DNA of 64,000 nt, taken from the NCBI GenBank assembly GCA_964447905.1, contig CAYUUK010000005.1, positions 279-64,278 of the forward strand. Direction: 5' to 3'. Shown here one piece after another: positions 16,591 through 50,972 of the stretch. Within the stretch, counting starts at the first letter, position 1; the number at the start of each line of letters is the position of its first letter. Source of the DNA: an uncultured Pseudomonadales bacterium. GTDB taxonomy: Bacteria; Patescibacteriota; Microgenomatia; UBA1400; UBA1396. Both the position numbers and the translations under genes were made by a program. Under the pieces are notes generated by a model. The model ran no database searches, was not told the origin of the DNA, and saw only the letters and a program-made list of their open reading frames with translations.

Positions 16591-16591
16591 T

Positions 16592-17509: not shown

Positions 17510-17524
17510 AGAATAAGGAAATCT

Positions 17525-19870: not shown

Positions 19871-21131
19871 ACAACTTTTTGATGAGTACCAAAAATATGT
19901 GCTTGAGGTGACGCCGTTTCGCGCCCCAATTCTTGCATCGGCTCAAGGAAGTTACTATAAAGATATCGATGGAAACAGCTATCTTGATCTTATGGGAGGC
20001 CAGTTTTGTGAAGTGTTGGGTCATGGAGATGAAGAGTTAGCGGAAGTGGTGTATAAACAGAGTAAAAAGATTTTACATACCAATACATTGTGTTTGACGG
20101 AAGAGGTTCTCGAAGCATGTCGTGCACTCAGTGAAATAACAGATGAAAAGCTACAAAAGACAATTTTACTTTCCACAGGAGCTGAAGCAGTTGAATGTGC
20201 ATTACGATATGCTCGTTTTTACACCAAGAAAGATGGGATTGTTTCGATCACCAACGGGTACCACGGTTTAACATTAGCAACGCAAAGTATTTCGAGTGGC
20301 GGGGCATATGCTCATCCCCTAGTTCCTGGTTCCCACTTTATTCCAACTCCTGATTGGCACAATCGTCCTGATGATATTGATGAAGGGGAGTTTATAGATC
20401 AACACCTTAAAGCTGCCGAAGAGTATCTAGTGGCATATGAAGGCACCCTCGCCGCCTTCATTATCGAGCCAGTGGTATCAGTTGGAGGAATGATTTATTT
20501 ACCCAAAGAGTACTTTATCGGACTAGCGGAGATTGCCAAAAAGCATGACGCTCTGCTAATCTATGACGAGTGTCAAACTGGACTGGGTCGACTTGGCACC
20601 TGGTTTGGGTATGAGCGAACTGGCATAGTACCAGATATTTTAATTTTAGCGAAAGCAGCAGGACTCGGTTTTCCAGTTTCAGCAGTTATGTTTTCTCAAG
20701 AAATTGCGGAGGCTGTAGAAGGAAAGTTCATTCACTTTAGCTCGCACCAAAATGATCCTTTTTCTGCTCGAATGGTACTTCACTTAGTCAATACGATAAA
20801 AAAAGAAAATATGCTTTCAACAATTCGGGAAAGCGGTGAGTACTTTGTAAGTCGCCTGCAAGAGCTTTCTAAAAAAAGTGCTTTGCTGTTGCGGCCGCGT
20901 GGAGAAGGACTCATGATTTCTTTCGATTTACCAGAAGAGCACTTTACTGAGACGATAAATCCCGGAATGCGGCTCATTGATTTGCTTGAACAGCACGGGG
21001 TAATGGTGCAGGCAATCCACAGAGGTAAGACGTTCCGTATAATTCCAAGTTATCGCATTTCTCGAGACGAAATTGATTTTTGTATTAAGACACTCGATAC
21101 CTGTTTACAAATTTTAGAAAAGGAACTATGA
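19851..21131 (+). CDS. class III PLP-dependent aminotransferase
   Basis: IYDECQTGLGRLG (D-E-x-Q-T-G) and ILAKAAGLG (PLP lysine region). Start chosen 5 nt after AAGGA. Confidence 0.8.
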   Translation: MNMNKSKQLFDEYQKYVLEVTPFRAPILASAQGSYYKDIDGNSYLDLMGGQFCEVLGHGDEELAEVVYKQSKKILHTNTLCLTEEVLEACRALSEITDEKLQKTILLSTGAEAVECALRYARFYTKKDGIVSITNGYHGLTLATQSISSGGAYAHPLVPGSHFIPTPDWHNRPDDIDEGEFIDQHLKAAEEYLVAYEGTLAAFIIEPVVSVGGMIYLPKEYFIGLAEIAKKHDALLIYDECQTGLGRLGTWFGYERTGIVPDILILAKAAGLGFPVSAVMFSQEIAEAVEGKFIHFSSHQNDPFSARMVLHLVNTIKKENMLSTIRESGEYFVSRLQELSKKSALLLRPRGEGLMISFDLPEEHFTETINPGMRLIDLLEQHGVMVQAIHRGKTFRIIPSYRISRDEIDFCIKTLDTCLQILEKEL

Positions 21132-22228
21132 AAGTACCTTTCGTTGATCTCTCCCAACAATATAAAGAGGTGAAAGTTGAACTGCAGAAGGATTTCGATC
21201 GGGTTTTTGCAGCACAGAACTTCATTTTAGGAAATGAAGTTGAGCAGTTTGAAAAAGAATTTGCCGCGTATATTGGGAGTAAGTACTGTGTAGGTGTTGG
21301 AAGTGGAACAGATGCACTTATCCTCGCCTTAAAGGCAATGGGTGTCGGTGAGAATGATGAGGTGATTTTGCCCACACACACTTTTGTAGCTACTGCTTTG
21401 GCGGTGATCGAAACAGGAGGAACCCCAGTTTTTGTGGATGTGGATGAGGCTACTCTGCAAATGGACGTGGATGCTGTCGCTGCTGCTATAAACACTAAGA
21501 CAAAGGTTATTCTGCCAGTTCACTTATATGGATCCATGGTTCCAATGGACAGACTTGTGCAGTTAGCTCAGAAGCACGATATTCAGATTTTAGAAGACGC
21601 TTGTCAGGCACATGGTGCGACGTATTCTGGGCAAAAAGCCGGGACATTTGGTAGTATGGCTGCCTTTAGCTTTTATCCTGGGAAAAATCTGGGCGCTTAT
21701 GGCGATGCTGGGGCAATTGTTACTAATGATCCTGAACTCTATGAACAGGCCAAACTCCTGCATAACTATGGGCAAAGAAAAAAGTACCATCATGAAATGC
21801 TCGGAAAAAATTCTCGTCTCGATGAGCTTCAGGCTGCATTTTTGCGGACAAAACTCCTGCATCTGGATAGCTGGAATCAGCAAAGAAAGCAAATTGCCCA
21901 AAAGTATAACGCTTCTTTAGGGCAGTATCGCTTGGAAGTTCCTGATGAAATAGAGAGTGTATATCACCTATACGTGATCCAGCATCCTCATCGTGATGAG
22001 TTGCAGGCATATTTAGAAAACCATGGGGTGAATACGCTTATTCACTATCCCATACCATTGCACATGCAGCAGTGTTTTAAGTACATGAATCATGCTCCGG
22101 AAGAGTATCCGATTGCCGAAAAGTACACAGCACGGATTCTTAGTTTACCAATTTATCCTGGCATGACTGATGAGCAGGTAGACTATGTCATTGAGCAAAT
22201 TCTGACGTTTGAGAACGAGAAGAAATGA
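21128..22228 (+). CDS. DegT/DnrJ/EryC1/StrS-family sugar aminotransferase
   Basis: Typical N-terminus VPFVDL...ILG.EV..FE..FA.Y and the SFYPGKNLGAYGDAGAI PLP-lysine box. Confidence 0.85.
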   Translation: MKVPFVDLSQQYKEVKVELQKDFDRVFAAQNFILGNEVEQFEKEFAAYIGSKYCVGVGSGTDALILALKAMGVGENDEVILPTHTFVATALAVIETGGTPVFVDVDEATLQMDVDAVAAAINTKTKVILPVHLYGSMVPMDRLVQLAQKHDIQILEDACQAHGATYSGQKAGTFGSMAAFSFYPGKNLGAYGDAGAIVTNDPELYEQAKLLHNYGQRKKYHHEMLGKNSRLDELQAAFLRTKLLHLDSWNQQRKQIAQKYNASLGQYRLEVPDEIESVYHLYVIQHPHRDELQAYLENHGVNTLIHYPIPLHMQQCFKYMNHAPEEYPIAEKYTARILSLPIYPGMTDEQVDYVIEQILTFENEKK

Positions 22229-23196
22229 GATCCCCAACGGTTTCTATCACGCTAGCAACATATAACAGAACGGAATTTCTGCAAGGGACTCTCGATTCTT
22301 TAGTCGCGCAAACGTATCAAGATTTTGAGATTATCTTGGTGGATGATGGCTCAACAGACAATACCCCACAGCATATTGAACAATTACTAAAAAATAAGAA
22401 GTATGCAAAGGTTCGATTTTTTCCACTACCAGAGAATAGAGGAATAGCGTTTGCTATATCCTACGCAATGCAGCACTCAAAAGGTAAGTATATCTCCCAT
22501 ATTGGCTCGGATGATCTATGGCAGAAAACGGCTCTTGAAAAAATGGTGCAGGTGCTCGATACCAATTCAGAAGTTGGTGTTGTGTACACAGATGCCTCTC
22601 GGATTGATAGAGATGGCAAGATACTTTCTGAATCTCGTTTTGCTGAGAACCCAATAGGACCTCAAAAAGGCTGGGTTTTTAAAGACTTGCTTCTAAAGGG
22701 AATGTTTGTGTCCGCTATCTCAGTTACGTTTCGGCGATCTTTGTATGATATTGTTGGCGATTTTGATACTAACTATAGCATTAGTAATGATTACGATTTC
22801 TTTATGCGCTGTTCCGCTCATGCACAATTTGACTATATTAATGAGGTCTTAGCTTGTTGGAGAATGCATGACAAAAATCTTCATAAGAAAGACAAAACAC
22901 AAGCTTACATAGAGAGAATAGCGGTTATTCAAAAGAATTACATGGCATGTGGCAAGGAATTCCATATCTCCGAATTGAGATATCGAACTATAATTTCTAG
23001 TATTTATCTTCAAACTGGAATTTTCAAAGCACAAGCGGGCGACTTTGCGGAAAGCCGACCGTATTTCATTAAAAGTTTGATGTTTATGCCAGTAAATATT
23101 TTAGCGTTTGTGTTGTTTTTTAACACATATCTGAAATTACGATGGTTATGGCATTTTGAAATATATAAAAAAGTATATTTGCGAATGTTTAAATAA
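22225..23196 (+). CDS. glycosyltransferase family 2
   Basis: SITLATYNR...ILVDDGSTDNT and the GSDD DxD region. Confidence 0.8.
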   Translation: MRSPTVSITLATYNRTEFLQGTLDSLVAQTYQDFEIILVDDGSTDNTPQHIEQLLKNKKYAKVRFFPLPENRGIAFAISYAMQHSKGKYISHIGSDDLWQKTALEKMVQVLDTNSEVGVVYTDASRIDRDGKILSESRFAENPIGPQKGWVFKDLLLKGMFVSAISVTFRRSLYDIVGDFDTNYSISNDYDFFMRCSAHAQFDYINEVLACWRMHDKNLHKKDKTQAYIERIAVIQKNYMACGKEFHISELRYRTIISSIYLQTGIFKAQAGDFAESRPYFIKSLMFMPVNILAFVLFFNTYLKLRWLWHFEIYKKVYLRMFK

Positions 23197-23198
23197 GT

Positions 23199-24140
23199 AT
23201 GAAACAGATACAATCACTTATGACCACGAAATGGTTTCGATATGGTGTTTCGATTCTTTTGACGGTTTTTCTTGTTTATTACTTTGTTGATTTTGGATTC
23301 TTTTTTGAAAATCTGTTGTCTACACGCTGGGAATACAGTATCATTCCAATTGTTTTTTACTATTTTCTTTTGGCGGCAATGGCTATGCGATGGCGTGTAG
23401 CTTTACGGCACTTATCAATCCATGTGCCATTGAGTGAACTCTTTTTGCTCTATTTGAAACACAACTGTATAAACCAAATTTCTCCAGGAAGTATCGTTGG
23501 AGATGGATATCGTGTTATTCATCTAAACAAAAAATACTCGGTGCCGAAAACTCTTTCTCTCTCGACAGTTATTATTGAGCGAATAGTAGGATTAAGTACA
23601 CGTATTCTTCTATTTGTACTCTTTTCTTTGTACCTATTTACCCAAATTGACTTTGTTTCTTTTGATTCCACTTCTCTCACAAAATATGTGTATTTGATAC
23701 CTGTTGTCGGTGTGATCTTCTTGGTTTCCCTTAAGCTATTTAAGAATAAACTCTTTTCTTTATTCAACACTGTGAAAAGTACTCTTCTAAATAGATATGT
23801 ATTAGTGGCTTCAATTGGTTTTACGCTTCTTGCTCAGGGAATACAGATTATTATGGCGTATGGAGTAGCTTTAATGGTCTCACTTCCGGTATCTCTCTAT
23901 CAGATAGGATTTGCTTTTGTGCTGGTAGAGCTCATCATGCTCATACCAGTCAGTGTGAATGGTTGGGGGACAAGGGAACTGGTTTTGATATATACCCTAG
24001 GAATATTTGGTGTGGATCCAACACTCACAACACTTTTTGCACTGATGAGCCGTGCTGTATATGTTTTCCTTACGTTACAAGGTCTTCCTTTTGTTATCCA
24101 TGAGTTTGGATTAAGAAATACTTTCAAGAAGCAACAGTAA
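23199..24140 (+). CDS. UPF0104/LPG-synthase-TM 'flippase-like' membrane protein
   Basis: 8-TM protein immediately after a GT2, the usual GT2/UPF0104 pairing. Confidence 0.55.
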   Translation: MKQIQSLMTTKWFRYGVSILLTVFLVYYFVDFGFFFENLLSTRWEYSIIPIVFYYFLLAAMAMRWRVALRHLSIHVPLSELFLLYLKHNCINQISPGSIVGDGYRVIHLNKKYSVPKTLSLSTVIIERIVGLSTRILLFVLFSLYLFTQIDFVSFDSTSLTKYVYLIPVVGVIFLVSLKLFKNKLFSLFNTVKSTLLNRYVLVASIGFTLLAQGIQIIMAYGVALMVSLPVSLYQIGFAFVLVELIMLIPVSVNGWGTRELVLIYTLGIFGVDPTLTTLFALMSRAVYVFLTLQGLPFVIHEFGLRNTFKKQQ

Positions 24141-24141
24141 T

Positions 24142-26658
24142 TTATTTTTTGGTATAACTATACACAACTATTGGTTCATTTCTTCTGCCAGAATGCACAC
24201 CGACTTCGTCTATTGGGCTGACAAAGCGTTTCGTAAATATATCCATAACATAGAGCGAAAGTGTATTGTTATGCTCACTAAAGCGTCGGCCAGCGAATAG
24301 CCACAGCGTTTGGCCAGATTTCATTTGGGTAAGTACTTGTGTAAGCTCGTCAGCGTTTCGAATGTATGGTGTGTTTGAGTAGATCGAAAGAACCTTATTA
24401 CTTCCAGATGGAATATATCCCATTTCGGAGCTCAAAGTTCCATTCATGATGTAGTCGTATTGACCATAGTGCCAGGGGTTGTAGATATCTGTAACTACAT
24501 ATATATCATTTGGCCGCTTGTGGTTACTGATGAAGGATAGTGCTTCCAGTGATCGTGGACTTCTGATAACAGCTGTAATTCCGTGAAACACGTGTGGGTT
24601 TTCAAGTAGCTTTGTGTAGAGCTTTGCCTGAGAGATCGTGCTGCTAGAGTAGAGTTCAATGTCACCAACACGGTTTCTTTCAAAGTAGTAGTGACTGGCA
24701 TAGTCTTTTACGGTACGTGAGGAAAGGATACCAATCAAGAGTGTACCGATAAAAACGAATGGCAACAGTTTTTTTGAAATTGATAGTTTTTGCACAAGAG
24801 AAAAAAGGATCCAGATGGCAAAAATACCAAAAGCAATATATGTGCCGAGCAAATACTTAACGGCAAAGCGATTAAACAGTAAGAATCCAAAAAGGAAGTT
24901 AAGGAGAGAAAAAATACCGATTAGAGTTATTTTTTCTGGTATCTTGATGTCTAGAGTGCGCCGTTTTAGAAGAAAATAGAGCGTAAGCACCACAATGAAT
25001 ATCAAAATTCCAAGATGACTGTAGAGTATGGTCGAACTGTAGTAGTGGAATGTGGGTAAAAAAGAATCTAAAACCCCAACTGTATTCGAAGACTGGACTG
25101 CATAGGTTCCTTTTAGGAAATGCAGACGGTAAAAATTGAGAATTTTAAAATTAAAGAGGTATCCCGCTGTAAAGCTAGCAAGGAGTGACAGCAATGAGAC
25201 ATTTCTCAACCATTTCCATCGATCTCTAAGCACCAAAAACACTAGGAAAGCCGGTATTACTGCATAGCTGAACAAAAGACTTGAACCAGCTACAAAGACA
25301 ATACCAATATATGTGGCAAGTTTGCTCTTTGATATTTTTTGAATGGAAGTTTGGTGGAAGATAGCAAGTGAGAGAAAGAGCAGTAAATATCCAATCATGT
25401 AGTGGCGAGCTTGAGTAGACCAAGCAATAAGATAGGGATATGTAGCAGCATATATCCCAACACCACATGCGAATACTTTGTTTGTATTTTTATAGAACTG
25501 AGTTAAGAAGTACACAAAGGCAACACCTGTAAGTAACGAGACAAGTCGCATAGAAAAGTGATTCGTGCCCAGAAGCAATCCACTGAGAGCTGTTAGGTAA
25601 CTGAAGAGATAACCTCGCATATATAGTTGGCCTGATTCGAAGAGAGGAAAACCATTTTTGAGAATGGCATCAGTGATGAGAGGGTAGAGCCCTTCGTCGC
25701 CACTAAATGGTAACAGCGAAATGTTGAGGAGTCTCAGTATTGCTGCAAATAGGGTGGTGTAGAGTGAAAGTACAATAAATCGATGTTCTCGAGTTTGTGA
25801 ACCACTCTTTTCTGCGGAGAAGAAGTTAAGACGTATTCTTTTTTGTAATCGGATGGCTAAGAGTGTTGCGGAGCTCAAAAATGGTCCAAAGGAAATAAAG
25901 ATGACAGCGATATATTGTTCAAGTTTGTTAAAAATATACTCAGATTCATATACAGCTTTTTTGTACAGAAAATTAAGGAATTCTGTAGGGTCATTTCTAA
26001 AATCTGCGATCGAGAAGATGTGTCGATAGTAAACTGCTTCTAGCAAAAGTTCGCCAGAATTCGGAAGTATTTGGTAGGTATAGGTTTTCTGCTTGGATTT
26101 AAGTTTTGGAAAACCGAGAATCATTGTTTTTTCTTGAGTCGGGGTAAACTCAGTCTCGAAAAGCCATTCTGTTGAGTCTTTTTCTTTCAGTCGAAAAATA
26201 AAGTTGCTCTGCATCGGTGTTTTGAGTGTAACGAGCAGAGTGCCAAAATTATTTACAGTGGATTCGTAATAACCTTCATATGCATGCGTATTTGTTTTCT
26301 CCTCTTCTGTGAGAGCTTTATAAACAGTAATGTTTTTGGGAGGATGGGTTTCAAAATGATGTTGTGAAACTGAAAAAGAACCTGATAGAAACGTGAAAAT
26401 AGCAATGCTGGCGAGTAGTAGCGGTGAAAAAAGAAAAGAGATACCCAACTCAGTTACTGAATGAATGATTGCCCTAAATTGAATTTTCTTCCAATTGAAG
26501 GCAATAAGGCTAACGGTACTAATGATTGGTGCGAGAATAAAAAAATTTGGGAGTTTGAAGTATGGATGCGGACTAAAAAACTGGAGACAAAAGAGTAAAC
26601 CTGTCAGAGCAGAAAAAAGTAGAAATACTCGTGCTAACGAGGCAAAAGATAATTTCAT
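24142..26658 (-). CDS. GT-C glycosyltransferase (ArnT/PMT GT39/GT83-like) with extra N- and C-terminal domains
   Basis: Core PFSGDEGLYPLITDAIL...PLFESGQLYMRGYLFSYL matches the DE-x-Y loop-1 motif of the ArnT/PMT family. More than 12 TM; 838 aa. Confidence 0.65.
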   Translation of the reverse strand: MKLSFASLARVFLLFSALTGLLFCLQFFSPHPYFKLPNFFILAPIISTVSLIAFNWKKIQFRAIIHSVTELGISFLFSPLLLASIAIFTFLSGSFSVSQHHFETHPPKNITVYKALTEEEKTNTHAYEGYYESTVNNFGTLLVTLKTPMQSNFIFRLKEKDSTEWLFETEFTPTQEKTMILGFPKLKSKQKTYTYQILPNSGELLLEAVYYRHIFSIADFRNDPTEFLNFLYKKAVYESEYIFNKLEQYIAVIFISFGPFLSSATLLAIRLQKRIRLNFFSAEKSGSQTREHRFIVLSLYTTLFAAILRLLNISLLPFSGDEGLYPLITDAILKNGFPLFESGQLYMRGYLFSYLTALSGLLLGTNHFSMRLVSLLTGVAFVYFLTQFYKNTNKVFACGVGIYAATYPYLIAWSTQARHYMIGYLLLFLSLAIFHQTSIQKISKSKLATYIGIVFVAGSSLLFSYAVIPAFLVFLVLRDRWKWLRNVSLLSLLASFTAGYLFNFKILNFYRLHFLKGTYAVQSSNTVGVLDSFLPTFHYYSSTILYSHLGILIFIVVLTLYFLLKRRTLDIKIPEKITLIGIFSLLNFLFGFLLFNRFAVKYLLGTYIAFGIFAIWILFSLVQKLSISKKLLPFVFIGTLLIGILSSRTVKDYASHYYFERNRVGDIELYSSSTISQAKLYTKLLENPHVFHGITAVIRSPRSLEALSFISNHKRPNDIYVVTDIYNPWHYGQYDYIMNGTLSSEMGYIPSGSNKVLSIYSNTPYIRNADELTQVLTQMKSGQTLWLFAGRRFSEHNNTLSLYVMDIFTKRFVSPIDEVGVHSGRRNEPIVVYSYTKK

Positions 26659-27251
26659 AAAGTGCTTGGATCCTGAATAGTAAAGTATTTATATTTATCA
26701 CAGATATTATTTGTATTGCAGAGGCGTAAAATTGCGTTGTCTATAGGTTCTGTTACAGGTTGTTTTATAACAACTTTTTCATTTTCCCATCGGACAATGA
26801 TGAAGTTTGTATTTCCGACCGTGACTGTACCTGCTTGCCAGGGATCACCAAAATTTTGACCATTCAGAGACACATAATCACCTTGAATTGAAGAAGTACT
26901 ACTGAGAGAGTGTATCCTTAGTGCTGTGAATGAATTTGTGCCCGTGATAAAGAACAGAATTGCTATTGGAAGAAAAGAAAGAAAAACCAATACGTAAATA
27001 AGCGGGTTTCTTTTTTGAGCAATAAATTCACCTACCCAAAAAGCAACAATTGAAGAAATTAAGAGGCATATCGCTTGAAATATTAAAAAAAATGACTCGA
27101 AAGGGACTCGAGTTTGAAAGGAGAGTAATGAGCCGCTACTCAAGAGTATTACAAAAATTAGTAGAGCAAAGAAGAGTTTCCAAACAAAGAGATTCGCTGA
27201 TATAGGGATTGCTCGTATTAACTTTTTGGCCTGAGTCGTAATAGCATGCAT
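26655..27251 (-). CDS. membrane protein (3–4 TM plus a soluble C-terminal domain), unknown function
   Basis: ORF with TGA/ATG overlap to the downstream GT-C. Hydrophobic N-terminal half. Confidence 0.4.
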   Translation of the reverse strand: MHAITTQAKKLIRAIPISANLFVWKLFFALLIFVILLSSGSLLSFQTRVPFESFFLIFQAICLLISSIVAFWVGEFIAQKRNPLIYVLVFLSFLPIAILFFITGTNSFTALRIHSLSSTSSIQGDYVSLNGQNFGDPWQAGTVTVGNTNFIIVRWENEKVVIKQPVTEPIDNAILRLCNTNNICDKYKYFTIQDPSTL

Positions 27252-29552: not shown

Positions 29553-29611
29553 GGGGACATGGTAGCACAATTTGTGTGCGCTCACGCTCAGCAAGGAGCA
29601 AAAATGAATTG

Positions 29612-29685
29612 TGGCTGATTAGGGACTCGAACCCCAGACCTCTCGAATGTGAATCGAACGCTCTAACCAACTGAGCTAATCAGCC
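29612..29685 (-). tRNA. tRNA-Val (anticodon CAC), no encoded CCA
   Basis: Manual fold: acceptor GGCTGAT/ATCAGCC, D-arm GCTC-AGTTGGTTA-GAGC, anticodon stem TTCGA/TCGAG with loop TTCACAT, T-loop TTCGAGT. Confidence 0.9.
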
Positions 29686-38115: not shown

Positions 38116-39480
38116 TTATCGAAAAGCAACGGTGTCAGGTTTTCCAAATGCTTGGTTGAAACTACGCGCAAACTCGGCTGCATTAGCAAACCCAGAATCA
38201 GAACCTTTTGGCAGTGCCATTTCAAAAAAGATAAGTACCGATTCAAAGTCTAGTCCATATTTTTTACAGTAGGACTGTATTTTGTCCTCATGTAGGTTCC
38301 CAACACTGCCCAGCATAATATGTTGAATAGCAATACCAACTGGTGATACATTCTGCATCGTTGGCGGTGGGTCTATAGAAAGCCAATAGTTTTGGCCTGT
38401 AATGAGTTCGTGCAGTATGATGGCCACAGCAGAGCAATCGTAAGCCGCACCAGTATTCAGAGAACTGTATCCCATGCTTCCTCGTACATCACCTTCTTCA
38501 ACCGGATGGGCTAAACTGGCCAATCCAAAATCAAGAAGAACGGTTTTGTGGTTATTTGGATCATTTATCAACTTCTCATTTTTTAGCAGTGGAAGTATAT
38601 GCACCAGGATATTCTCAGGTTTGATATCACAGTGAATGAGTTCCATATATTGTCCGCGTTGGAGAGTATTAGCTACATTTCCACCACCGATAACTCGACG
38701 CACTTTTGGTGTGTGAAGCTCTTTTAATGTTTGCAGAATAGAGGAGACATATGCGTGTAGGTTCTCGGGATGAAGTATTCGCTCAATTACTTGAAGAGGA
38801 ATAGACGGATCTCGATCAATAATTTGGCGCAGGGTAGGATATTCATGAGTATCAAAGTACTCCATGATCAGAACTTTTTCTTCTGTGCTCGTCTTTCCAA
38901 AGTAGTAATATCTAGAGATTCCAGGTGTGCCGAGATGGGTTTCTCCTGCCAAAGTGTAGGCCTCGTGCATAATTTCTGGCACTTCCTCTTCTTTCCGATC
39001 AGGTCTGGTAATTTTTAGACCAACTCTTTTTTTTAGATTAAGACAAAACGCTGGGAGAAACTGTGCTGCCCCACCTTGGCTCATCATGTTCTTATCGTAA
39101 ATTACGATTGGGTTAGGAATTTTACGATCTGTATAAGCACTGGCAGATGAAAGTTCAGAGTTCAGAATCCAAGATCGGTCTTTATCGACGATTGAAAGGA
39201 CCAAAGAGCTTCTTCTTTCTCTATGAAAAAGAGTTATGAGCTCCTGCTTTTGCGATTGCTCTAAACGAGCAGCTTCGATTGCTCTTTTCAATTCAGGACT
39301 AACTTCCTGTAAGAACCGATTAAATTCTCGTTCCACACGAAATACCCCCTCAGGTGGTTTGGGAGGTTTGGTAGTGTCGAGAGGCTCGCCAACTTCTGGA
39401 CGAAGTTGAGATGTTCGCAGAGGAGTGTTTCTATCTCCTGGCCTTAGCCTCTCTATAATTTCACCGATTCGTAAAGCCAT
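38116..39480 (-). CDS. eukaryotic-like Ser/Thr protein kinase with a novel ~170-aa N-terminal region
   Basis: Catalytic loop HCDIKPENIL and DFG motif LLDFGLA, but no canonical G-x-G-x-x-G or VAIK motifs. The start codon lies 4 nt downstream of the tRNA-Lys 3' end. Confidence 0.7.
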   Translation of the reverse strand: MALRIGEIIERLRPGDRNTPLRTSQLRPEVGEPLDTTKPPKPPEGVFRVEREFNRFLQEVSPELKRAIEAARLEQSQKQELITLFHRERRSSLVLSIVDKDRSWILNSELSSASAYTDRKIPNPIVIYDKNMMSQGGAAQFLPAFCLNLKKRVGLKITRPDRKEEEVPEIMHEAYTLAGETHLGTPGISRYYYFGKTSTEEKVLIMEYFDTHEYPTLRQIIDRDPSIPLQVIERILHPENLHAYVSSILQTLKELHTPKVRRVIGGGNVANTLQRGQYMELIHCDIKPENILVHILPLLKNEKLINDPNNHKTVLLDFGLASLAHPVEEGDVRGSMGYSSLNTGAAYDCSAVAIILHELITGQNYWLSIDPPPTMQNVSPVGIAIQHIMLGSVGNLHEDKIQSYCKKYGLDFESVLIFFEMALPKGSDSGFANAAEFARSFNQAFGKPDTVAFR

Positions 39481-39484
39481 AATC

Positions 39485-39559
39485 GGTGAGCCCGGAAGGA
39501 TTTGAACCTTCGACGCACAGCTTAAAAGGCTGTCGCTCTAACCCCTGAGCTACGGGCCC
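39485..39559 (-). tRNA. tRNA-Lys (anticodon TTT), no complete CCA encoded
   Basis: Manual fold: acceptor GGGCCCG/CGGGCTC, anticodon stem ACAGC/GCTGT, loop CTTTTAA, T-arm GAAGG-TTCAAAT-CCTTC, 3' end ...A-CC-g. Confidence 0.9.
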
Positions 39560-39634
39560 ATCTTATACTTCACGCGCATCTCACATGAGAAGTACATGAT
39601 ATTATATCATGCGATTCACCTGTACAATAGGAAT

Positions 39635-40813
39635 ATGGACAACAGCTCTCCTCTGGCACATTTGCTCCGCCCGACAACTTTGAATGAAGTAGTCGGACAG
39701 TTGCACCTCATTGGCGAAGATAAGCCGCTCCGCCGATTGGTAGAAAAGAACGATGTGTACTCCATGATTTTCTGGGGACCACCAGGTGTGGGAAAAACCA
39801 CACTGGCAAGAATTCTAGCCAAGGCGAGTAACCGACCATTTATTGAGCTCTCGGCTGTTTCTGCCTCGAAAGCTGATGTGCGGGCCGTAATCGAAGATGC
39901 TCGTGCTCCGCAAAAAATGCTTACACAAACACATGTGCCACCAGTACTTTTTCTCGACGAAATTCATCGTTTTACGAAAGCGCAGCAAGATTTTCTATTG
40001 CCCTACGTCGAAGACGGCACAATTATTCTCATTGGAGCTACTACCGAGAATCCCTCTTTTGAAGTAATTTCACCGCTTCTGTCGCGGATGCGAGTGTATG
40101 TACTCGAAGAGCTTTCTCTCTCAGATTTGGAAACATTAGCAAAAAAAGCCTTTCACAGTCTTGGGATTGAAGACCCAAATGATGATGTTGTCCGAGAGGC
40201 GATTCGGCAAGCGAACGGCGATGCCCGACAACTGCTCACACTCCTTGATCATGCCTGGCAAACCTATGGTGAGATTACCAGTGAACAGCTGGAAAGCATT
40301 GGCCACAACTTGGTTCGTTTTGACAAGAGCGGTGAACAACACTACGACACCATCAGTGCCTTTATCAAAAGCATGCGCGCCAGCAATGTGGATGCGGCAC
40401 TGTACTATTTGGCACGGCTGGTCCATGGTGGGGAAGACCCCAAGTTTATTGCTCGGAGAATGGTGATTTTTGCTAGCGAAGACATCGGTTTAGCGCAACC
40501 AACTGCCCTCGTGGTGGCGAACGCCGTTTTTGATGCAGTGCACAAAACAGGATACCCCGAGGCACAGATAACGCTCGCTCACGGTGCAGCGTATTTGGCG
40601 CAAGCCAAAAAAGATCGTTCAGCCTATGATGCGTATTTTGCGGCACTCAGAGATGTAGAGAGTACTGGAAACCTACCAATACCAAAAAAACTTCGTAATG
40701 CTCCTTCAAAGCTTATGAAAGAGCTGGGGTATGGTGAAGGATATGACATGTATCCAGAGCCAGGTGAAAGTTTATTGCCAGAAAAGTTACAGAAGAAACG
40801 ATACTTTTCGTAG
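39635..40813 (+). CDS. rarA: replication-associated recombination protein A (AAA+ ATPase)
   Basis: Walker [12 protein letters not shown]; N-terminus [15 protein letters not shown] typical of RarA/MgsA. Confidence 0.85.
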
Positions 40814-40853
40814 AAATCTTTCCAGATACTTGATCCTATGCTACAGTGCTTGC

Positions 40854-41318
40854 ATGAAACAAACGTTTATTCTCACTACAGTACTTATGAGCGGCTTTTT
40901 GTTTGCTGGCTGTAGCATCACCACATCTGATACCATACCAACACAAAACACCGAGGACACTTCTATGCAAGAATCAACTCAACCCGAAATCAATGAACTG
41001 ATCATTGAGGACATCACTACCGGTGAAGGTCAAACAGCCGAGGCCGGAGACATGGTGACGGTGCACTATACCGGCACACTCATGGATGGCACTGTTTTTG
41101 ACTCTTCACACAATCGCAACACTCCGTTTACCTTTGAACTCGGAGCCGGCCAAGTGATTGAAGGCTGGGACCAAGGTGTGCAAGGTATGCAAGAAGGTGG
41201 TACTCGTAAATTAACTATTCCATCTGACATGGCTTACGGCGAGCGAGGTGTTCCTGGTGCTATCCCACCAAGCGCACCGCTGGTCTTTGAGGTTGAGCTT
41301 TTAGAAGTTGAAAAATAA
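40854..41318 (+). CDS. FKBP-type peptidyl-prolyl cis-trans isomerase, lipoprotein
   Basis: Lipobox LFAGC. FKBP core [16 protein letters not shown]...F.LG.G.VI.GWD.G..GM..GG.R.L.IP..AYG. Confidence 0.85.
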
Positions 41319-41320: not shown

Positions 41321-43831
41321 CTAGAGTACTGATTGAATCAATTTACTGGCTTGTGCGGTAGCATACAGATTTTCTAACGAGTAAGTGCTTGATTCTAGAG
41401 TGCTGTTCAAGTGCAATATTCTCTGATAATCCTCTAGTGTAAGGGGTTGGATATCGAGGAGTGCTTCTTTTTCTGACTGAATTTGCTCAATTTTTTCCTC
41501 TAGTTGAATACTTCTTTGAACTAAATGTGTGTCTAATTTTTGCAGTACTGTAGTGAGCTGACCTTTGAAAGCAGTCACCGCCTCTGGGTATTCCTCAGAA
41601 TGAAGAATTGAGTATGGTGACGTAGCAGTTTTTTCTCCGAGAAGTGCAAGAAGTGTGTTTTTACATTCTTCTGCTGAGAGAATTGATGATTCACGAGTAT
41701 CCTCAATTTTCCCACTTGCTAAAGTTGCTGCTGTCTTTGCCAGAACTGCGTGTATATGAGAAAGATCAGTAATATACGATGATTGAATGAGCTTCTGAAG
41801 TTTCTCTGGCTGTACAGTGTCACTGAGCATGTCGAAAATGTGTTCTAAAATTTTGCGAACGGTTGGAGTAGCAAGAACTCCACTGAAATCTTCTCTAATT
41901 TCCTTTTTTACTTCTTTTTCTGTTTTTCTTCGTTTTGCAACAGTACGAACTATGAGTGCTGCAGCAAATAAACCTGATGAAGCAACCAGATCAACTGGAG
42001 AACCTTCAGCATTGCTCGGTGGCCTCATCTCAAGCATAGACAAGTCTTCTCCCGGATTCGGCGTATATGGTGTGGCATCAAAGTATAAAAAGTGACCATT
42101 GGGGAGATGCATGACACCATTGAGATGTCCTACTCGGCTGTAAAGGCCGTTACCGTATTGGGCGTAGTGAGAACCTGTTTGCATGTATACGCGTACGTCA
42201 AAAGGAGCAAAAAAGTCGTCAACAATTTGATTTGCGATAGTGCAATAAAATGCTGGTAAGCCATATATGCTGTTGTAGCCATATCCAGCTAAGATGGGGT
42301 AGCGTGTAGCAATATCTGGATGCTCATAGAGTAAGCTATAAAAATGCTCAGATTGTATAAAGTTGACAAGCTCAATTAAGCTACTTTGAACTATCTCAGA
42401 GTAGCGGTCGTGATACTCAGTGACAGTCATAGGTGAGCTTGTGCCTTGAGAAGTTCTCCAGTCTTGATACAGCTGTTCTAATTGATTGTGCACTTCTTGG
42501 TGCATGGACATAATTTCTGGTGCACTAGCGAGAACTTCATAGAGTTCAGCGAGAGCTTCACGCTCTTCAAGGGTCTCGAAGGCGGATGAAAATATACCTG
42601 AATTTGGCGTGTACCGAGAACCATATGTTCCAAGATACTCTATTATCGCTGGAGCGATTGTGTGACCACGATCTGGTCTGGCAACGACCAACACTTCTGG
42701 TGAAGTAGTAACGTTTGAAGCGAGAGCAAGATTTCCGGGACCTGGTAAGAACAGCTGCATACCGGTGGCTTCATTTGTGAGAGGTACTATTTCTCGCTCT
42801 GATTCCACGAAAATTTGAGCGATATAGTATCCAACCGGAGGAAATATATTGCTTGATCGGGCAGTACTTCTGAAGGGCGAGTACACCCACTCATCTGGTT
42901 GAGGAGAGTATGTTTCCGCTGATATTTCTTCTACATACGTAATCTTTGATTCAGGAAAAGGAAGATAAGGTTCGGCTTCCTCACCAGCCTGGCGGTTGTA
43001 CCACATATCTGGAAAAAAGCCTAAGTATGTGCCGGAATCTGCAGAAGCAAGCGATTCTGGCACATGGTAGAGATCTGCGCGTCGGACAGTTGGTTGGCTC
43101 CTTAGAGCCTCTCTATCGAGTTCTCTAAGGATATCATCATATATTTCAGCACTTGATGGGGGTTCTTCAGCCTCACCATTTCTACTGGCGCCGAATATCA
43201 TTACACCACTTGCGAGTATCGTGAAGAAAATCATTAAGTAGATTACATAACGAAATTTTTTCCGGAGAAAATCATGTTCACTTTTTACAAAATCTCTTGT
43301 TTCAGAAATTTCTTTTTCAAATTCAGCTCCGAGAACTCCCATTTCCTTGATTCTTTTTTGGATAACATGATCTTTTGCGTGTGTACTTAATAAGTAGTGC
43401 GTGCCTCCCAATAGAAGTAATGATGTGAGGGCGCTTGACATATCTTGTCTACTATCAAGTATTTTAATGGCGCTCTCAATGCTTGAGAGTTCAAAGACAA
43501 CATATAAAGCAACGAGGAGGGCAGCTGTTGTTACAGTACCCGCAGAAGAAGAATGTGTCGCATATTCCGAGCGATCAGTGTCTCTTGTGACTTCTAAGAC
43601 GTCAGAGATAGGCGCATTTAACGCCATTTGATTATTTAAACCATAAAGGCCATAGATTCTGGGAGTGAAAAACTGTTCTAAGAACTCCATCTGTCTATAT
43701 CGCTCACGAACAAACGCAATTATCTCTTCAGATTTTTGGCTGGTAAACCCAGAAGAAAGAGGTAGTTTGTGAAGAACTTTTCGAGCTTTCTCAGATTGGT
43801 CAATCGAATCAATAGTTCCAATTCGCGACAT
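41321..43831 (-). CDS. membrane protein with a transglutaminase-like (TgpA-type) Cys-His-Asp core and a C-terminal coiled-coil
   Basis: Three TM segments. Between TM2 and TM3: FYCTIANQ ... GHLNGVMHL ... FLYFDATP, matching the order and spacing of the transglutaminase-like catalytic triad. The start may instead be the internal Met at 43690. Confidence 0.4.
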   Translation of the reverse strand: MSRIGTIDSIDQSEKARKVLHKLPLSSGFTSQKSEEIIAFVRERYRQMEFLEQFFTPRIYGLYGLNNQMALNAPISDVLEVTRDTDRSEYATHSSSAGTVTTAALLVALYVVFELSSIESAIKILDSRQDMSSALTSLLLLGGTHYLLSTHAKDHVIQKRIKEMGVLGAEFEKEISETRDFVKSEHDFLRKKFRYVIYLMIFFTILASGVMIFGASRNGEAEEPPSSAEIYDDILRELDREALRSQPTVRRADLYHVPESLASADSGTYLGFFPDMWYNRQAGEEAEPYLPFPESKITYVEEISAETYSPQPDEWVYSPFRSTARSSNIFPPVGYYIAQIFVESEREIVPLTNEATGMQLFLPGPGNLALASNVTTSPEVLVVARPDRGHTIAPAIIEYLGTYGSRYTPNSGIFSSAFETLEEREALAELYEVLASAPEIMSMHQEVHNQLEQLYQDWRTSQGTSSPMTVTEYHDRYSEIVQSSLIELVNFIQSEHFYSLLYEHPDIATRYPILAGYGYNSIYGLPAFYCTIANQIVDDFFAPFDVRVYMQTGSHYAQYGNGLYSRVGHLNGVMHLPNGHFLYFDATPYTPNPGEDLSMLEMRPPSNAEGSPVDLVASSGLFAAALIVRTVAKRRKTEKEVKKEIREDFSGVLATPTVRKILEHIFDMLSDTVQPEKLQKLIQSSYITDLSHIHAVLAKTAATLASGKIEDTRESSILSAEECKNTLLALLGEKTATSPYSILHSEEYPEAVTAFKGQLTTVLQKLDTHLVQRSIQLEEKIEQIQSEKEALLDIQPLTLEDYQRILHLNSTLESSTYSLENLYATAQASKLIQSVL

Positions 43832-45339
43832 ACCTTCATCCGGAGGAGTTTCGTATGGCGTTTTTTTGAGTGGTGTTTCTGAATATCCGGTTGAATTATT
43901 TTGCTCACAATCTGCAAAAACAGGTTTTTTCGCGGAGACGGAACTCCTACCGTAGCGAGAGAAAAAGCTACTAGGCTAACTTTTTCGGTAGCTGATAGGG
44001 AAAACCACGTGGGCCCAAAAAGCTGAGTGATCCACCTAGAGTTTTGTGCTTCAAAAAGTGATTGGAGTTTTTCCGAGAGATGATCGTAGTTTAGTGAAGC
44101 TTTGCCATGTTCACTAGCACGAGAGGTGATGAATGCCTCATAGAGAAGCGGGCTCAAGGTATGGAGTTTTTTCCACGGATCACTTAATCGCTGTCTCTCA
44201 TTGAGAATTGGTTGGCGCAATGGGTCATAATTCTCTAGTATTGCATCTAAAGCTCGGTACTGATTTCGCCGTAGTTGCAGTGTTTTTTGTCGGATTTCGG
44301 CTTGAAGTTTTCGTTCTTGTTCAACTACTTGATCCCGGATTTCCTGCCATGGATGAGCGCTATCTGCTCTTGCGGCAATGCGACTTCCATGGGCTATGAG
44401 AGCAGCATTTCCACCTGTTACAGCTCGTGAATCTAAGGGGATTTTTGTTCTTGCTTTAGTGATTTGATCAGTGCTAAAAATACCTTGAGGAATGGGAAGT
44501 TGTTGCAGTTGTGATTCTCCTAGATAGGCTGGTAAGAAAAAATCGGTCCAGTATTGAGAAATGAGAGCATTGTTCCTACTTTCTTGGCGCGTACCATTTT
44601 TTTTAATCAGTTCTCGAACGACTGGTGGTATAAATTCATGAGGAGCATTTTTGTTCAGTGCAGCTAGGTAGTAGGGAGCGTGCTGATTTGTGGCAGAAAA
44701 ATACCCATACAAATAACCAAAAATACAAATGGATTCTATAAATGTTTTACTGCTTTTTGTATTCCCATTGCAATATGCCTGAAGATTTGCCTCAAAATTT
44801 CTAAATACCTCCTGGGTGTACCAGTAAGAAAGGGGGTTGAGCATTTCTCTCGGCATAATTCGAGAAGTAGTTTCTTTCTTCATAAATTTAAGAGTGTTCG
44901 AGATATCATTACTGAAAGAAACGTAGCAGTATGAAAAAAGTAGTTCTTGTTGATCTTTACTGACCTCTTGATCAGGTAAGTGGTGGGAAATTATTTTTAT
45001 GAGAGCTGGTCGTAAGATACTTAAGATAGTTTCTATTGGTATTTTTTCAATTTCTTTATCAGTAAAAGTATTGTGTGGTAGTTTTTTCAGTATGTAGCGG
45101 AAAACGAGACGAGCTTTGGTAGGTGCTTTATTGGTGTATTGGTAGAGTACATTGATGCACTCGTCGAGTGACATGAGACTCACCCTCTTTAAGAAGTATT
45201 CTTCGAACTGTGAAGTGAGCAGCGCACGAAACAAAGGATTATCTAGTGTCTGCAACGGTATTTCGCTTGCTAGATCTCGCGGTTTTTTCTCTTTTTTACC
45301 GAGTAAAGAGCTGATGATGTTTTCACGTATTCTAGCCAT
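43720..45339 (-). CDS. hypothetical 539-aa soluble protein, no recognisable domain
   Basis: Long ORF, codirectional with and overlapping or abutting the TgpA-like gene. Lower GC than its flanks. Confidence 0.45.
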   Translation of the reverse strand: MARIRENIISSLLGKKEKKPRDLASEIPLQTLDNPLFRALLTSQFEEYFLKRVSLMSLDECINVLYQYTNKAPTKARLVFRYILKKLPHNTFTDKEIEKIPIETILSILRPALIKIISHHLPDQEVSKDQQELLFSYCYVSFSNDISNTLKFMKKETTSRIMPREMLNPLSYWYTQEVFRNFEANLQAYCNGNTKSSKTFIESICIFGYLYGYFSATNQHAPYYLAALNKNAPHEFIPPVVRELIKKNGTRQESRNNALISQYWTDFFLPAYLGESQLQQLPIPQGIFSTDQITKARTKIPLDSRAVTGGNAALIAHGSRIAARADSAHPWQEIRDQVVEQERKLQAEIRQKTLQLRRNQYRALDAILENYDPLRQPILNERQRLSDPWKKLHTLSPLLYEAFITSRASEHGKASLNYDHLSEKLQSLFEAQNSRWITQLFGPTWFSLSATEKVSLVAFSLATVGVPSPRKNLFLQIVSKIIQPDIQKHHSKKRHTKLLRMKVCRELELLIRLTNLRKLEKFFTNYLFLLGLPAKNLKR

Positions 45340-48408: not shown

Positions 48409-49866
48409 TTACTTAAGTTCGTTTGCGCTATTGAGGAATCGCTCTGTAACTCTCTCTTTCCCAATTGCCTGAATCGTCTCAAAGAGCGGCGGTGTGGCTT
48501 TTCTGCCGGTGGCCGCTAAACGAAGCATCATGAAGTATTGGCCCTTTTTCCAGTCATGAGCTTCCTGGAGTTCGCGAATAGCGGTTTCGATGGCTTCGTG
48601 TTGCCAGTCAGTAATCGTTTGCAGAGCTTCTACCGTTTTATGGAGCTGTTCGGCCACGAGCTCTGGCGTAGCGCCTTTTTTCAGCAGTTGATCAGAGTCA
48701 ACGGTTATATCCTGGTAAAAGAAATCAGTTAACTCAGTAAAGTCGCGAAGTGTAGTCATGCGATCGAGCACGAGCGGGAGATAGAGCGGAATGTTTTCTA
48801 CTGGATAGTCTTCTGGTAAGTAGGCCCGAATACGTTCGGCTACTTCTTCCAAGGACAGGATCTCGCGTAGGTACTTTCCGTTCATCCAGTTGAGCTTTTC
48901 CAAATCAAAAACCGGTCCGGTTTTTTGCATTCGCTGCATGTCAAAAACATCCACAAACTCTTCGAGCGATATAGGAAACTCTTTATTTTCAGGATGTGAC
49001 CAGCCTAGCAGCATTAAGAAATTAAGCAGTGCCTCTGGCAAGTATCCCTTTTCTTTGTAGCTGACAATAGAAACATCATTTTTTCGCTTCGAGAGCTTTG
49101 ATTTATCGGTGTTTCTCAGCAGCGGCATATGAGCGTACTCAGGGAGATCGAATCCCAAGGCCTTGAAGAGAATACTATGCTTTGGGGTGGAGCTAATCCA
49201 TTCTTCGCCACGCAGCACGTGTGTGATGCCCATAAGATGATCGTCCACCACGACGGCCATGTGGTAGGTGGGAAAACCATCAGATTTGAGTAAGACTTGG
49301 TCATCAATCTGCGCATGGTCAATCTCCACTTCACCGCGGATGAGGTCGGTCCATTGCGTTTTTCCTTCTGGAACACGCAAGCGAACAACATACTCTTCAC
49401 CCTGAGCGACCTTTGCTTTGGCCTCTTCTAATGAGTAGGTATGTAAGCAGTGGCGATCATATTTTGGAGGTTGTTTGGCTGCCTGTTGCGCGGCGCGCAT
49501 ATCAGCGAGTCTTTCGGAAGAACAGAAACAGTAGTAGGCGTCACCTTGCTCTATAAGTTGGTCAACGTACTTTTTGTATGTCTCGAGCCGTTCGGATTGG
49601 CGGTATGGTCCGTACTCTCCAGCACGCTGCACACTTTCATCAGGAGTAATTCCAGCCCATGAAAGCGCCTCAAAAATGACTTCTTCCGCACCTTCAACAA
49701 AGCGATTCCTGTCTGTATCCTCGATACGAACAATAAACTCACCATTCTGTTGTTTCGCAAATGCGTAGTTAAACAGAGCAATATACAAAGTACCGACATG
49801 GGCAATTCCAGTTGGGGAGGGAGCGATACGAGTACGGATATGGTTCATAGCGGTATTATACGTCAT
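48409..49866 (-). CDS. gltX: glutamyl-tRNA synthetase
   Basis: RIAPSPTGIAHVGT (HIGH), KLSKR (KMSKS), and RIEDTD typical of GluRS. Confidence 0.9.
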   Translation of the reverse strand: MTYNTAMNHIRTRIAPSPTGIAHVGTLYIALFNYAFAKQQNGEFIVRIEDTDRNRFVEGAEEVIFEALSWAGITPDESVQRAGEYGPYRQSERLETYKKYVDQLIEQGDAYYCFCSSERLADMRAAQQAAKQPPKYDRHCLHTYSLEEAKAKVAQGEEYVVRLRVPEGKTQWTDLIRGEVEIDHAQIDDQVLLKSDGFPTYHMAVVVDDHLMGITHVLRGEEWISSTPKHSILFKALGFDLPEYAHMPLLRNTDKSKLSKRKNDVSIVSYKEKGYLPEALLNFLMLLGWSHPENKEFPISLEEFVDVFDMQRMQKTGPVFDLEKLNWMNGKYLREILSLEEVAERIRAYLPEDYPVENIPLYLPLVLDRMTTLRDFTELTDFFYQDITVDSDQLLKKGATPELVAEQLHKTVEALQTITDWQHEAIETAIRELQEAHDWKKGQYFMMLRLAATGRKATPPLFETIQAIGKERVTERFLNSANELK

Positions 49867-49892: not shown

Positions 49893-50960
49893 TTACTGGT
49901 AGACTCTGCTGTCTAGTGCGCTGACGTAGGCACGAAAGCCGTTGTCCCCGCTGAAAACGTACACAGGTTGATAGTAATTTTGTGCTTGAGACGGTTCATA
50001 GTAGCCCAAAGCTACTTGTCGAACTATGGCTGTACCACCGTCAGTAGGTGCAGAAACGACGTAGCCATCGCCGGCCTGTAGAGCCTGCCAGGCGAGTTGT
50101 GCTGGCTGCAGCGGATAGGTTTCAAAGTTTGACCAGTCAACCGTGGAGTATTGGGATTCAAGGTTCAAGACTCTCTCTCCTTGCTCCCGACTTCCAGAGT
50201 ACAAGACGCGGATAACCCCTTTGCCAGCTTCGGACGTAACTGTTGGGTAGGCGTTAGGGGCGAGGCGATAGATGTCAACTTGGACAAAGTCAGCCTCAGA
50301 AACACTGCTCACCGGCTGGAGTTCTCCGCCTAAGGCACGAATGTACGTAATTTTCGGTTCAGCCGTGGCAATGTCCGCTGGCAGTAAATTCGCCGAGCGC
50401 AAAAGACTACGAGTTTCCACGGTGAGCTGGGAGGGAGTGGGGATCATTTTTTTATCGAGCAGCGAGACAGATGAGGCCCAGTCAACCGATAAATCCATGT
50501 GGCGCGTTACGATGTCCATTTCGAGTGTGGCGGGAATTGGGGTACCTCGGCGCCAACGATACTCTTCAGCCGATATTTTTTCTGGAGCAAACACAAATCC
50601 GAGTGAGGCAGCTGTTTCTTTTGCACTATCGAGCGCGAGCAAACTCGGCTGAGCAGACGGCATAAAGTAAACGGGAATCTGCGACCCAAAACTTGGCAGG
50701 CGCTGACCAACCGTTTGGAGCTCATAGGACTCCGGTCGCTCATCAGCAAGTTGATTGGGAAATGCTGGGCGAGGAAGGTAGCCAAAGCCCATGGTTGGAC
50801 CTGGTGTAGGAGGTGGGTTCAAAGCACTCAAGATGTTTACTGAAGTAGACAGCACCGAACGGCCAACAATCAGAACTACCAAAGCGATAACACCATAGAT
50901 AACCGCCAATCGACCGTACTTCGCGAAATTTGTGAGTGAGTAATCTGAGCTTTGAGCCAT
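49893..50960 (-). CDS. hypothetical N-terminally anchored extracytoplasmic protein
   Basis: One N-terminal TM then a 320-aa soluble region. 26 nt upstream of gltX on the same strand. Confidence 0.45.
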   Translation of the reverse strand: MAQSSDYSLTNFAKYGRLAVIYGVIALVVLIVGRSVLSTSVNILSALNPPPTPGPTMGFGYLPRPAFPNQLADERPESYELQTVGQRLPSFGSQIPVYFMPSAQPSLLALDSAKETAASLGFVFAPEKISAEEYRWRRGTPIPATLEMDIVTRHMDLSVDWASSVSLLDKKMIPTPSQLTVETRSLLRSANLLPADIATAEPKITYIRALGGELQPVSSVSEADFVQVDIYRLAPNAYPTVTSEAGKGVIRVLYSGSREQGERVLNLESQYSTVDWSNFETYPLQPAQLAWQALQAGDGYVVSAPTDGGTAIVRQVALGYYEPSQAQNYYQPVYVFSGDNGFRAYVSALDSRVYQ

Positions 50961-50972
50961 ATTCCTATGATA

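Follow-up and report, generated by a model that had tools for sequence, protein, structure and literature searches.

The thrU-tyrU-glyT-thrT-tufB genes of Escherichia coli are a mixed bacterial tRNA-mRNA operon, in which tRNAs and a messenger are transcribed from one promoter. In known bacterial operons of this type the tRNA and the coding region are separated by long spacers with Shine-Dalgarno (SD) sequences, unlike the junction described here. This junction lies in a 64,000-nucleotide stretch of contig CAYUUK010000005.1 (hereafter the window), where the start codon of a gene for a very divergent Hanks-type Ser/Thr kinase abuts a tRNA-Lys gene; in the unit that we propose, as in that of E. 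coli, tRNA and mRNA would share one promoter. The mitochondrial tRNA-punctuation model (Ojala et al. 1981, as reviewed in PMC10941002) offers a second point of comparison, since there, as in the window, coding regions start only a few nucleotides past a tRNA 3′ end, and with such spacing RNase P and RNase Z, in cutting out the tRNA, would leave an essentially leaderless mRNA. The window differs from mitochondria in that a single gene on a free-standing bacterial chromosome is concerned and not a whole genome, and in that its processing is one that we infer. The start codon near a tRNA and the lack of an SD, which mark tRNA-punctuated or leaderless mRNAs, are both found in the window and are kept in the closest available genome, a Candidatus Woesebacteria metagenome-assembled genome (MAG) designated L001.

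The closest described kinases are those of the PknB, PknA, StkP and Stk1 group (1MRU, 3ORM, 4OW8, 4EQM), which give the best profile matches to the window protein and share with it the catalytic K, E, D, N and D residues and a bilobal fold. Unlike them, the window protein has no transmembrane (TM) helix, PASTA domain or other sensor domain; it carries a 125-residue N-terminal extension and two inserts, has HCD in place of HRD, and lacks the APE motif. The account that we favor, with moderate confidence, is that of an inherited and probably active Hanks kinase that would be expressed through tRNA-Lys read-through and processing. The features on which it draws, all on the minus strand, are these:

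39485..39559, minus strand: tRNA-Lys, anticodon UUU (ARAGORN; Rfam RF00005, 69.8 bits over 39487-39559)
39481..39484, minus strand: GATT spacer of 4 nt from the tRNA gene to the kinase ATG (sequence reading)
38116..39480, minus strand: kinase open reading frame (ORF), 454 aa, ATG start (ORF list)
39106..39480, minus strand: N-terminal extension, residues 1-125 (AlphaFold2 (AF2) model)
38119..39105, minus strand: Hanks-type Ser/Thr kinase domain, residues 126-454 (Pfam PF00069, alignments, AF2, Foldseek)
38116..38118, minus strand: kinase stop codon, convergent with a Wzy-like gene ending at 38068
39601..39609, minus strand: probable tRNA-Lys promoter, extended -10 TGaTATAAT (sequence reading and L001 alignment)

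The tRNA-Lys/kinase junction and its conservation

The minus-strand junction reads ...GGGCTC-A-CC-GATT-ATG. The body of the tRNA ends at the discriminator base A39487 and is followed by CC, a full CCA not being encoded, and the kinase ATG lies 4 nt past the tRNA end called by ARAGORN (39485, with the ORF starting at 39480) and 6 nt past the discriminator; the distance of 4 nt given in an earlier reading of the sequence alone, made without database searches (the sequence-only reading), is thus confirmed. The GATT spacer is too short to hold a promoter or a terminator. General compaction of the genome does not account for this tightness, because the gene that follows tRNA-Val in the same window begins about 55 nt downstream and no other tRNA of the 18 surveyed has as tight a junction. 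We also note that tRNA-Val (29611-29685) ends ...GCC-A-CAA and tRNA-Lys ...CTC-A-CCG, so that neither encodes a 3′ CCA, which points to a need for a CCA-adding enzyme and for 3′ processing of the RNase Z type; the tRNA-Lys gene of L001 does encode it (ACCA).

A hairpin is predicted in the RNA at 39461..39489 of the minus strand (stem CACCGAUU / AAUCGGUG; RNAfold -16.6 kcal/mol, z = -2.3). Its arms are an 8-bp perfect inverted repeat, CACCGATT / AATCGGTG, that sets the tRNA 3′ end and spacer against kinase codons 5-7, and the AUG of the kinase is enclosed in the loop. Its significance is doubtful, because the L001 junction has no such AUG-enclosing hairpin (RNAfold z = -0.2).

The RarA protein of the window is 87% identical to that of L001, and the other best matches are also from Patescibacteria, which places the window in a genome of the Candidate Phyla Radiation (CPR). 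The gene order is the same in L001, with a Wzy-like gene, the kinase gene (469 aa), tRNA-Lys and rarA, and the junction there reads ...CTC-A-CCA-ACAT-ATG, with a 4-nt spacer (ACAT) after the encoded CCA. The tRNA-Lys genes are 100% identical and the first 10 nt of the two kinase ORFs are the same, whereas average protein identity across the region is about 66% and the kinases, at 31%, are the least alike of 15 syntenic genes (42-87% for the others). Identity falls toward the kinase, from Wzx (68%) through two GT2 glycosyltransferases (61% and 60%) and the Wzy-like protein (45%), and beyond the kinase it jumps to the values of the tRNA and RarA, so that the kinase acts as if it were the outer end of a variable region of surface-glycan genes.

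The composition of the gene is shared as well. The kinase gene of the window has a GC content of 42.6%, with 33.8% at third codon positions (GC3), compared with GC contents of 46.6% and 47.4% in the two flanking genes and GC3 values of 44-50% among its neighbors; in L001 the corresponding figures are 42.9% and 31.1% for the kinase and a GC3 of 45-53% for the neighbors. The lower-GC patch of the sequence-only reading is therefore real in that the gene lies below both flanks, but it is unexceptional within the window (z = -0.8, rank 12 of 50 ORFs). The comparison of tRNA-Lys loci that the same reading had proposed shows that the kinase gene is not an insertion relative to the one available relative, and indicates that it has been inherited vertically at this locus, in a small Woesebacteria-like (Patescibacteria) lineage, and is not a recent insertion.

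An independent (Logan) assembly, L149, is 99.9% identical to L001 (10001-11410 against 8473-9882), and in it the kinase gene is split by +1 and -1 indels in poly-A runs (A6 to A7 and A4 to A3). Assembly errors at homopolymers are the probable cause, and we do not read the indels as pseudogenization, although they may reflect true phase-variable frameshifting. L149 comes from the same organism as L001, as does the database entry P0127, which is the L001 gene from another assembly with two homopolymer indels, and neither is independent evidence. The kinase is absent from all 79 other RarA-anchored loci; as synteny has already been lost at these, they limit the known distribution of the gene and tell nothing of its gain or loss.

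A divergent Hanks-type kinase

The sequence-only reading recognized a divergent eukaryotic-like (Hanks-type) kinase by its catalytic loop and DFG motif. Both are present, the loop HCDIKPENIL at residues 283-292 and DFG at 317-319, and Pfam, profile and fold agree on the assignment. Pfam Pkinase (PF00069) matches residues 144-378 at 42.2 bits against a gathering cut-off of 31.7, and a profile built from four family members finds Mycobacterium tuberculosis PknB with E = 8e-34, followed by PknA, StkP and Stk1, with the G-loop, K40, E59, D138, N143 and D156 of PknB in register. A single-sequence search of the PDB returned nothing at E<=0.01. Membership of the Stk1/PknB PASTA family is not indicated, since NCBIfam PknB_PASTA (NF033483) scores 34.6 bits against a cut-off of 450 and the protein has neither TM helix nor PASTA domain; hydropathy reveals no TM segment and no signal peptide.

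The reported lack of a canonical glycine-rich loop and of a VAIK lysine is not confirmed by alignment. In an alignment of 71 sequences, made up of the window protein and about 70 bacterial kinases, a degenerate G-loop is found at S134-F141 (S-Q-G136-G137-A-A-Q-F), which keeps the central glycines and has S and A at the first and third glycine positions, and both the beta3 lysine K156 (R-V-G-L-K) and the alphaC glutamate E173 sit in invariant columns. All eleven invariant columns (G136, K156, E173, H283, D285, P288, N290, D317, G319, G334 and Y338) are kept in the window and L001 proteins alike, and the domain also carries D348. The catalytic loop, H283-C-D285-I-K287-P-E-N290, has HCD in the window (non-RD), while L001 keeps HRD but has DLG. 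The APE motif is replaced by S-S-L, its near-invariant P-E columns being L-N in the window and R-G in L001, and the column of the alphaH-alphaI arginine that partners the APE glutamate is not kept; this glutamate/arginine pair is common in the Hanks family and is not needed for catalysis. The two inserts lie at about residues 257-280, before the catalytic loop, and at about 294-313, between the catalytic loop and DFG.

In a structure prediction, as the sequence-only reading had recommended, the VAIK-equivalent lysine K156 and the alphaC glutamate E173, both placed by alignment, fall in strand 151-158 and helix 164-181. The AF2 model made with a multiple sequence alignment (predicted template modeling score 0.60; core predicted local distance difference test (pLDDT) 75-93) is bilobal with a kinase fold, whereas a single-sequence model was unusable (pLDDT 36.7). 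Its N-lobe, the absence of which that reading would have counted against a kinase, is predicted complete at pLDDT 75-93, with strands at 125-127, 134-136, 139-146, 151-158, 191-196 and 202-207 and helix alphaC at 164-181, and Foldseek matches the model to CaMKII, PknB and SRPK1 with probability 1.00 and TM(target) up to 0.62. On sequence and model together, the protein is probably an intact, catalytically active, soluble cytoplasmic kinase, very divergent, of the bacterial PknB-like Hanks Ser/Thr type.

The first ~170 residues had been said to match nothing. This holds for residues 1-125, which contain no known domain, and not for what follows, as the kinase N-lobe begins at about residue 125. 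Residues 1-45 are Pro/Arg-rich and predicted by AF2 with low confidence, and helices are predicted at 44-59 and 62-107. Pfam at E<=10 gives no match in the N-terminal regions of any of the four family members, and a profile search with the N-terminus found only P0127, the L001 gene from another assembly. The window and L001 N-termini are 35% identical from M1-A2-L3 onward, with indels in frame, and because the P0002 group alignment covers residues 49-445 the helical region is in part common to the family; the helical extension of ~125 residues is itself lineage-specific.

Relatives of the kinase are few, a handful among about 15 billion predicted proteins. An exhaustive HMMER search of 1.84 billion representatives found 6 proteins at E<=0.001, two of which (P0002 and P0003) align over residues 119-445, while the whole protein, used as query in a word-indexed homolog search, found only itself. 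A scan of metagenome contigs with the two-ortholog alignment gave, among the matches listed, only generic kinases of 20-34% identity, none of them beside a tRNA, and close relatives could lie among matches beyond those listed. The orphan family of the metagenomic proteins P0002/P0125 and P0003 resembles the window protein in its helical N-terminal region, in a kinase domain that runs to the C-terminus, and in a C-lobe motif, Y-C-Q/K-K-Y-G-L, and an F-F. It differs in being only 23-24% identical and in having a canonical G-loop, VALK or VAIK, and SPE or SPQ; the motifs GGMGFV...RVALKV and GGMGEI...PVAIKR of P0002 and P0003 align with SQGGAAQF...RVGLK of the window. The P0002 and P0003 genes also have SD-like sites of their own and no upstream tRNA, which makes the tRNA junction a lineage-specific solution; P0125 follows an alanine racemase gene. 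Bud32/KEOPS, which acts in t6A formation on tRNA-Lys, and HipA-type toxins were considered because of the link to tRNA. Both were rejected, since the Hanks C-lobe and the activation segment of the window protein are complete, there is no significant Pfam match beyond Pkinase, and the best profile and structure matches are of PknB type.

Proposed expression through the tRNA-Lys gene

The sequence-only reading held that the kinase gene has no promoter or SD of its own, and a promoter scan and a survey of start sites bear this out. There is no SD-like motif before the kinase ATG, the preceding sequence being the tRNA itself, and a two-hexamer consensus scan detects no promoter-like site in the interval that separates the tRNA from the ATG. 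An extended -10 element, TGaTATAAT (39601..39609), lies some 41 nt ahead of the tRNA 5′ end, where L001 has TGgTACAAT; the two-hexamer scan does not pick up the element. This is probably the promoter from which tRNA-Lys is transcribed and, by read-through, the kinase gene as well. The 75-nt gap between the divergent tRNA-Lys and rarA genes also contains a near-palindrome, CATGATATTATATCATG, at 39595-39611, which holds the extended -10 of the tRNA (minus strand) and could serve as an operator or as a bidirectional promoter element.

The missing SD is unremarkable, since an SD core of even 4 nt is found at only 10 of the 50 ORF starts of the window. TAHAAT-N6-ATG occurs 5 times against 1.4 expected, and none of 100 shuffles has as many as 5. 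At four genes, namely rarA, that for FKBP and two at 48.4-51.0 kb, the window and L001 share TAnnnT-N6/7-ATG. The -10-like hexamers concerned (TACAAT, TATAAT, TATCAT or TACAGT) stand exactly 6 nt before the ATG of rarA, FKBP and several other genes. The sites are:

39623-39637, plus strand: -10-N6-ATG
40842-40856, plus strand: -10-N6-ATG
6750-6764, plus strand: -10-N6-ATG
61531-61545, plus strand: -10-N6-ATG
49846-49860, minus strand: -10-N6-ATG
50958-50972, minus strand: -10-N6-ATG

The arrangement places the start of rarA at 39635 and not at 39596, and that of the gene at 48409-49866 at 49848. To judge by these sites, it suggests widespread leaderless mRNAs in the CPR lineage to which the window belongs.

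The ATG is supported as the kinase start because it is the sole start codon in the first 40 codons, because M-A-L is conserved, and because the ORFs of the two genomes do not differ in their first 10 nt. Since this codon abuts the tRNA, co-transcription with tRNA-Lys, as the sequence-only reading had proposed, remains the simplest reading, and the arrangement is kept in the second genome. RNA polymerase would start at the conserved extended -10 and read through tRNA-Lys into the kinase gene. RNase P and a 3′ endonuclease would then excise the tRNA; the endonuclease is proposed to be of RNase Z type because the tRNA gene encodes no CCA, and precursors of CCA-less tRNAs are cut at or just after the discriminator by such enzymes (models summarized in PMC4681348). 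A leader of 4-6 nt would be left on the kinase mRNA, and a leader of <10 nt counts as leaderless by the definition used (PMC4681348). Initiation on the processed mRNA would be SD-independent and of the leaderless type; as such initiation is apparently common in this genome, a message with so short a leader should be translatable. As a consequence, the amount of kinase made would depend on how tRNA-Lys is transcribed and processed.

It is thus plausible that transcription reads through from the tRNA promoter and that a near-leaderless message is then translated. A stronger proposal is that the tRNA gene has replaced the promoter and leader of the kinase, with excision of tRNA-Lys making a near-leaderless 5′ end, a single-gene bacterial form of tRNA punctuation; we put this forward tentatively, as a possibility to which we would give rather less than even chances.

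Several points weigh against the account as a whole. Co-transcription, processing and the translated start are all things that we infer, and a 5′-monophosphate mRNA would be prone to rapid decay. In some bacteria an encoded CCA blocks RNase Z, and as the L001 tRNA gene encodes CCA the processing route may differ between the two genomes. The 8-bp hairpin around the AUG, present in the window genome only, could hinder initiation, and a GTG at codon 49 with GAGG 11 nt upstream can be read as a possible alternative start. The synteny argument draws on one independent relative only. As for the protein, its degenerate G-loop, its lost APE motif and arginine partner and its non-RD loop mean that activity could be weak or atypical, and the link to the glycan cluster is one of position only, the genes being convergent.

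The internal GTG, or else a cryptic promoter inside the tRNA or the ORF, could allow the kinase to be expressed independently of the tRNA, and a weak promoter-like site on the minus strand at 39146-39119 could be cited in support along with the GAGG-N11-GTG at codons 44-49. We think this unlikely, because promoter-like sites occur at chance level (4 found, 3.5 expected), L001 has no matching start at the equivalent of codon 49, and residues 1-48 are as conserved as the rest (35%), with in-frame indels, an identical M-A-L start and the same first 10 nt. The position directly 3′ of a tRNA gene suggests a different origin for the junction, that of a recently acquired genomic islet integrated at tRNA-Lys; the sequence-only reading raised this because tRNA genes are landing sites for acquired DNA, and the low GC3 of the gene relative to its neighbors and the very small number of relatives anywhere would fit it. 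That reading already saw no integrase or att repeat, and domain and repeat searches agree: the 24-nt tRNA 3′ end occurs in one copy in the window at <=3 mismatches, flanking direct repeats are at chance level, the genes flanking the locus encode no integrase or recombinase domain, there is no phage match (PHROGs gives a generic kinase match only), and plasmid matches are weak and generic. An insertion would not normally keep a 4-nt spacing between tRNA and ATG, and the same junction and low GC3 at the same tRNA in L001, at about 66% average protein identity, leave the islet largely refuted and, in our judgment, highly improbable.

Three further alternatives concern what the protein does. A pseudokinase or scaffold without phosphotransfer, one of the possibilities raised from the sequence alone, could be argued from the degenerate G-loop, HCD in place of HRD, the loss of APE and the alphaH-alphaI arginine, and the rapid divergence of the gene. 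The beta3 lysine, catalytic aspartate and DFG aspartate are nonetheless all present in the window and in L001, and K156, E173, D285, K287, N290 and D317 are kept in both orthologs at 31% overall identity, a pattern that speaks for selection on catalysis; a non-RD loop or a variant G-loop is found in many active kinases. With all catalytic residues kept in orthologs that differ at 69% of positions, an active enzyme is the likelier case, and loss of activity appears distinctly unlikely. Rapid divergence is also what would be expected of an arms race, and an anti-phage element had likewise been suggested from the sequence alone; it could be a single-gene kinase of the PD-T4-6 or Stk2 type that senses infection and phosphorylates host or phage proteins. 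PADLOC models for PD-T4-6, a stand-alone Ser/Thr kinase like that of the window, give scores of up to 41.9 bits, and mad6 gives 35.6 bits. The match is confined to the generic catalytic core (profile positions 87-209 of 311), is no better than that of Pfam Pkinase, and is not specific to defense, since PD-T4-6 models also flag the conserved housekeeping PASTA-type kinase of every Streptococcus thermophilus genome (PMC11514479). Unlike PD-T4-6 systems the locus has no defense island, its neighbors being glycan synthesis genes, rarA, the FKBP gene and enolase, and it holds a fixed syntenic position and not a variable island, so that we regard a role in defense as very unlikely. The divergence, the greatest among the 15 syntenic genes, might instead mark diversifying selection on a host-directed effector. 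CPR bacteria live attached to host cells, and the Pro/Arg-rich, low-confidence N-terminus and a weak LegK1 match of the L001 ortholog (23.9 bits) would be in keeping with such an episymbiotic effector. We consider it improbable, as the protein has no signal peptide or TM segment, no secretion-system genes lie nearby, the LegK1 match is far below the cut-off of 550 bits and confined to the catalytic loop, and fast evolution could equally reflect relaxed constraint.

Neighborhood, role and significance

The kinase gene borders a variable region of envelope-glycan genes, and no gene of the neighborhood evolves faster. To its left lie genes for GT2s, Wzx, a Wzy-like protein, an epimerase, an aminotransferase, an ATP-grasp protein, PGA_cap and a methyltransferase; to its right are rarA, the FKBP gene and enolase, and there are no mobile-element or defense genes among these neighbors. 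The most economical guess is that the kinase has a regulatory role tied to the envelope polysaccharide genes beside it, and this functional assignment, to a cytoplasmic regulatory kinase that is possibly glycan-linked, is the weakest part of our account.

Two other segments of the window stand out in composition. Within the larger envelope-polysaccharide region, an 11-kb block of lower GC content (15880-27251; GC 36-43%, GC3 29-41%) encodes a methyltransferase, PGA_cap, an ATP-grasp protein, a class-III aminotransferase, a GT2 and an 838-aa protein without a Pfam match, and is probably a laterally exchanged surface-glycan cassette. Between the FKBP and enolase genes, two minus-strand ORFs at 41321-45339 (836 aa and 539 aa; GC 42% and 40.5%, GC3 33-36%) match nothing in Pfam, NCBIfam, PADLOC or PHROG. 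L001 has enolase directly after the FKBP gene, and this 4-kb block is either a lineage-specific insertion or a deletion in L001.

The locus thus presents a new, very divergent bacterial Hanks kinase, whose unusual part is its conserved tRNA-abutting start. It opens no major new question, and it adds a sparsely populated, fast-evolving PknB-like Hanks branch in the Patescibacteria, where signaling is almost unstudied. The start is fixed 4 nt after the tRNA in two diverged genomes in which SDs are scarce and -10-N6-ATG sites are conserved, and these traits suggest that leaderless-type initiation is routine in the lineage and that tRNA processing can supply the 5′ end of a bacterial mRNA. If so, the junction would be a natural test case for the translation of near-leaderless, 5′-monophosphate bacterial mRNAs, and would call for caution in gene calling in CPR genomes. 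Should tRNA punctuation hold, the dose of a signaling kinase would be coupled to the transcription and processing of tRNA-Lys, and in L001, with its CCA-encoding tRNA gene, the two RNA fates might be in competition.

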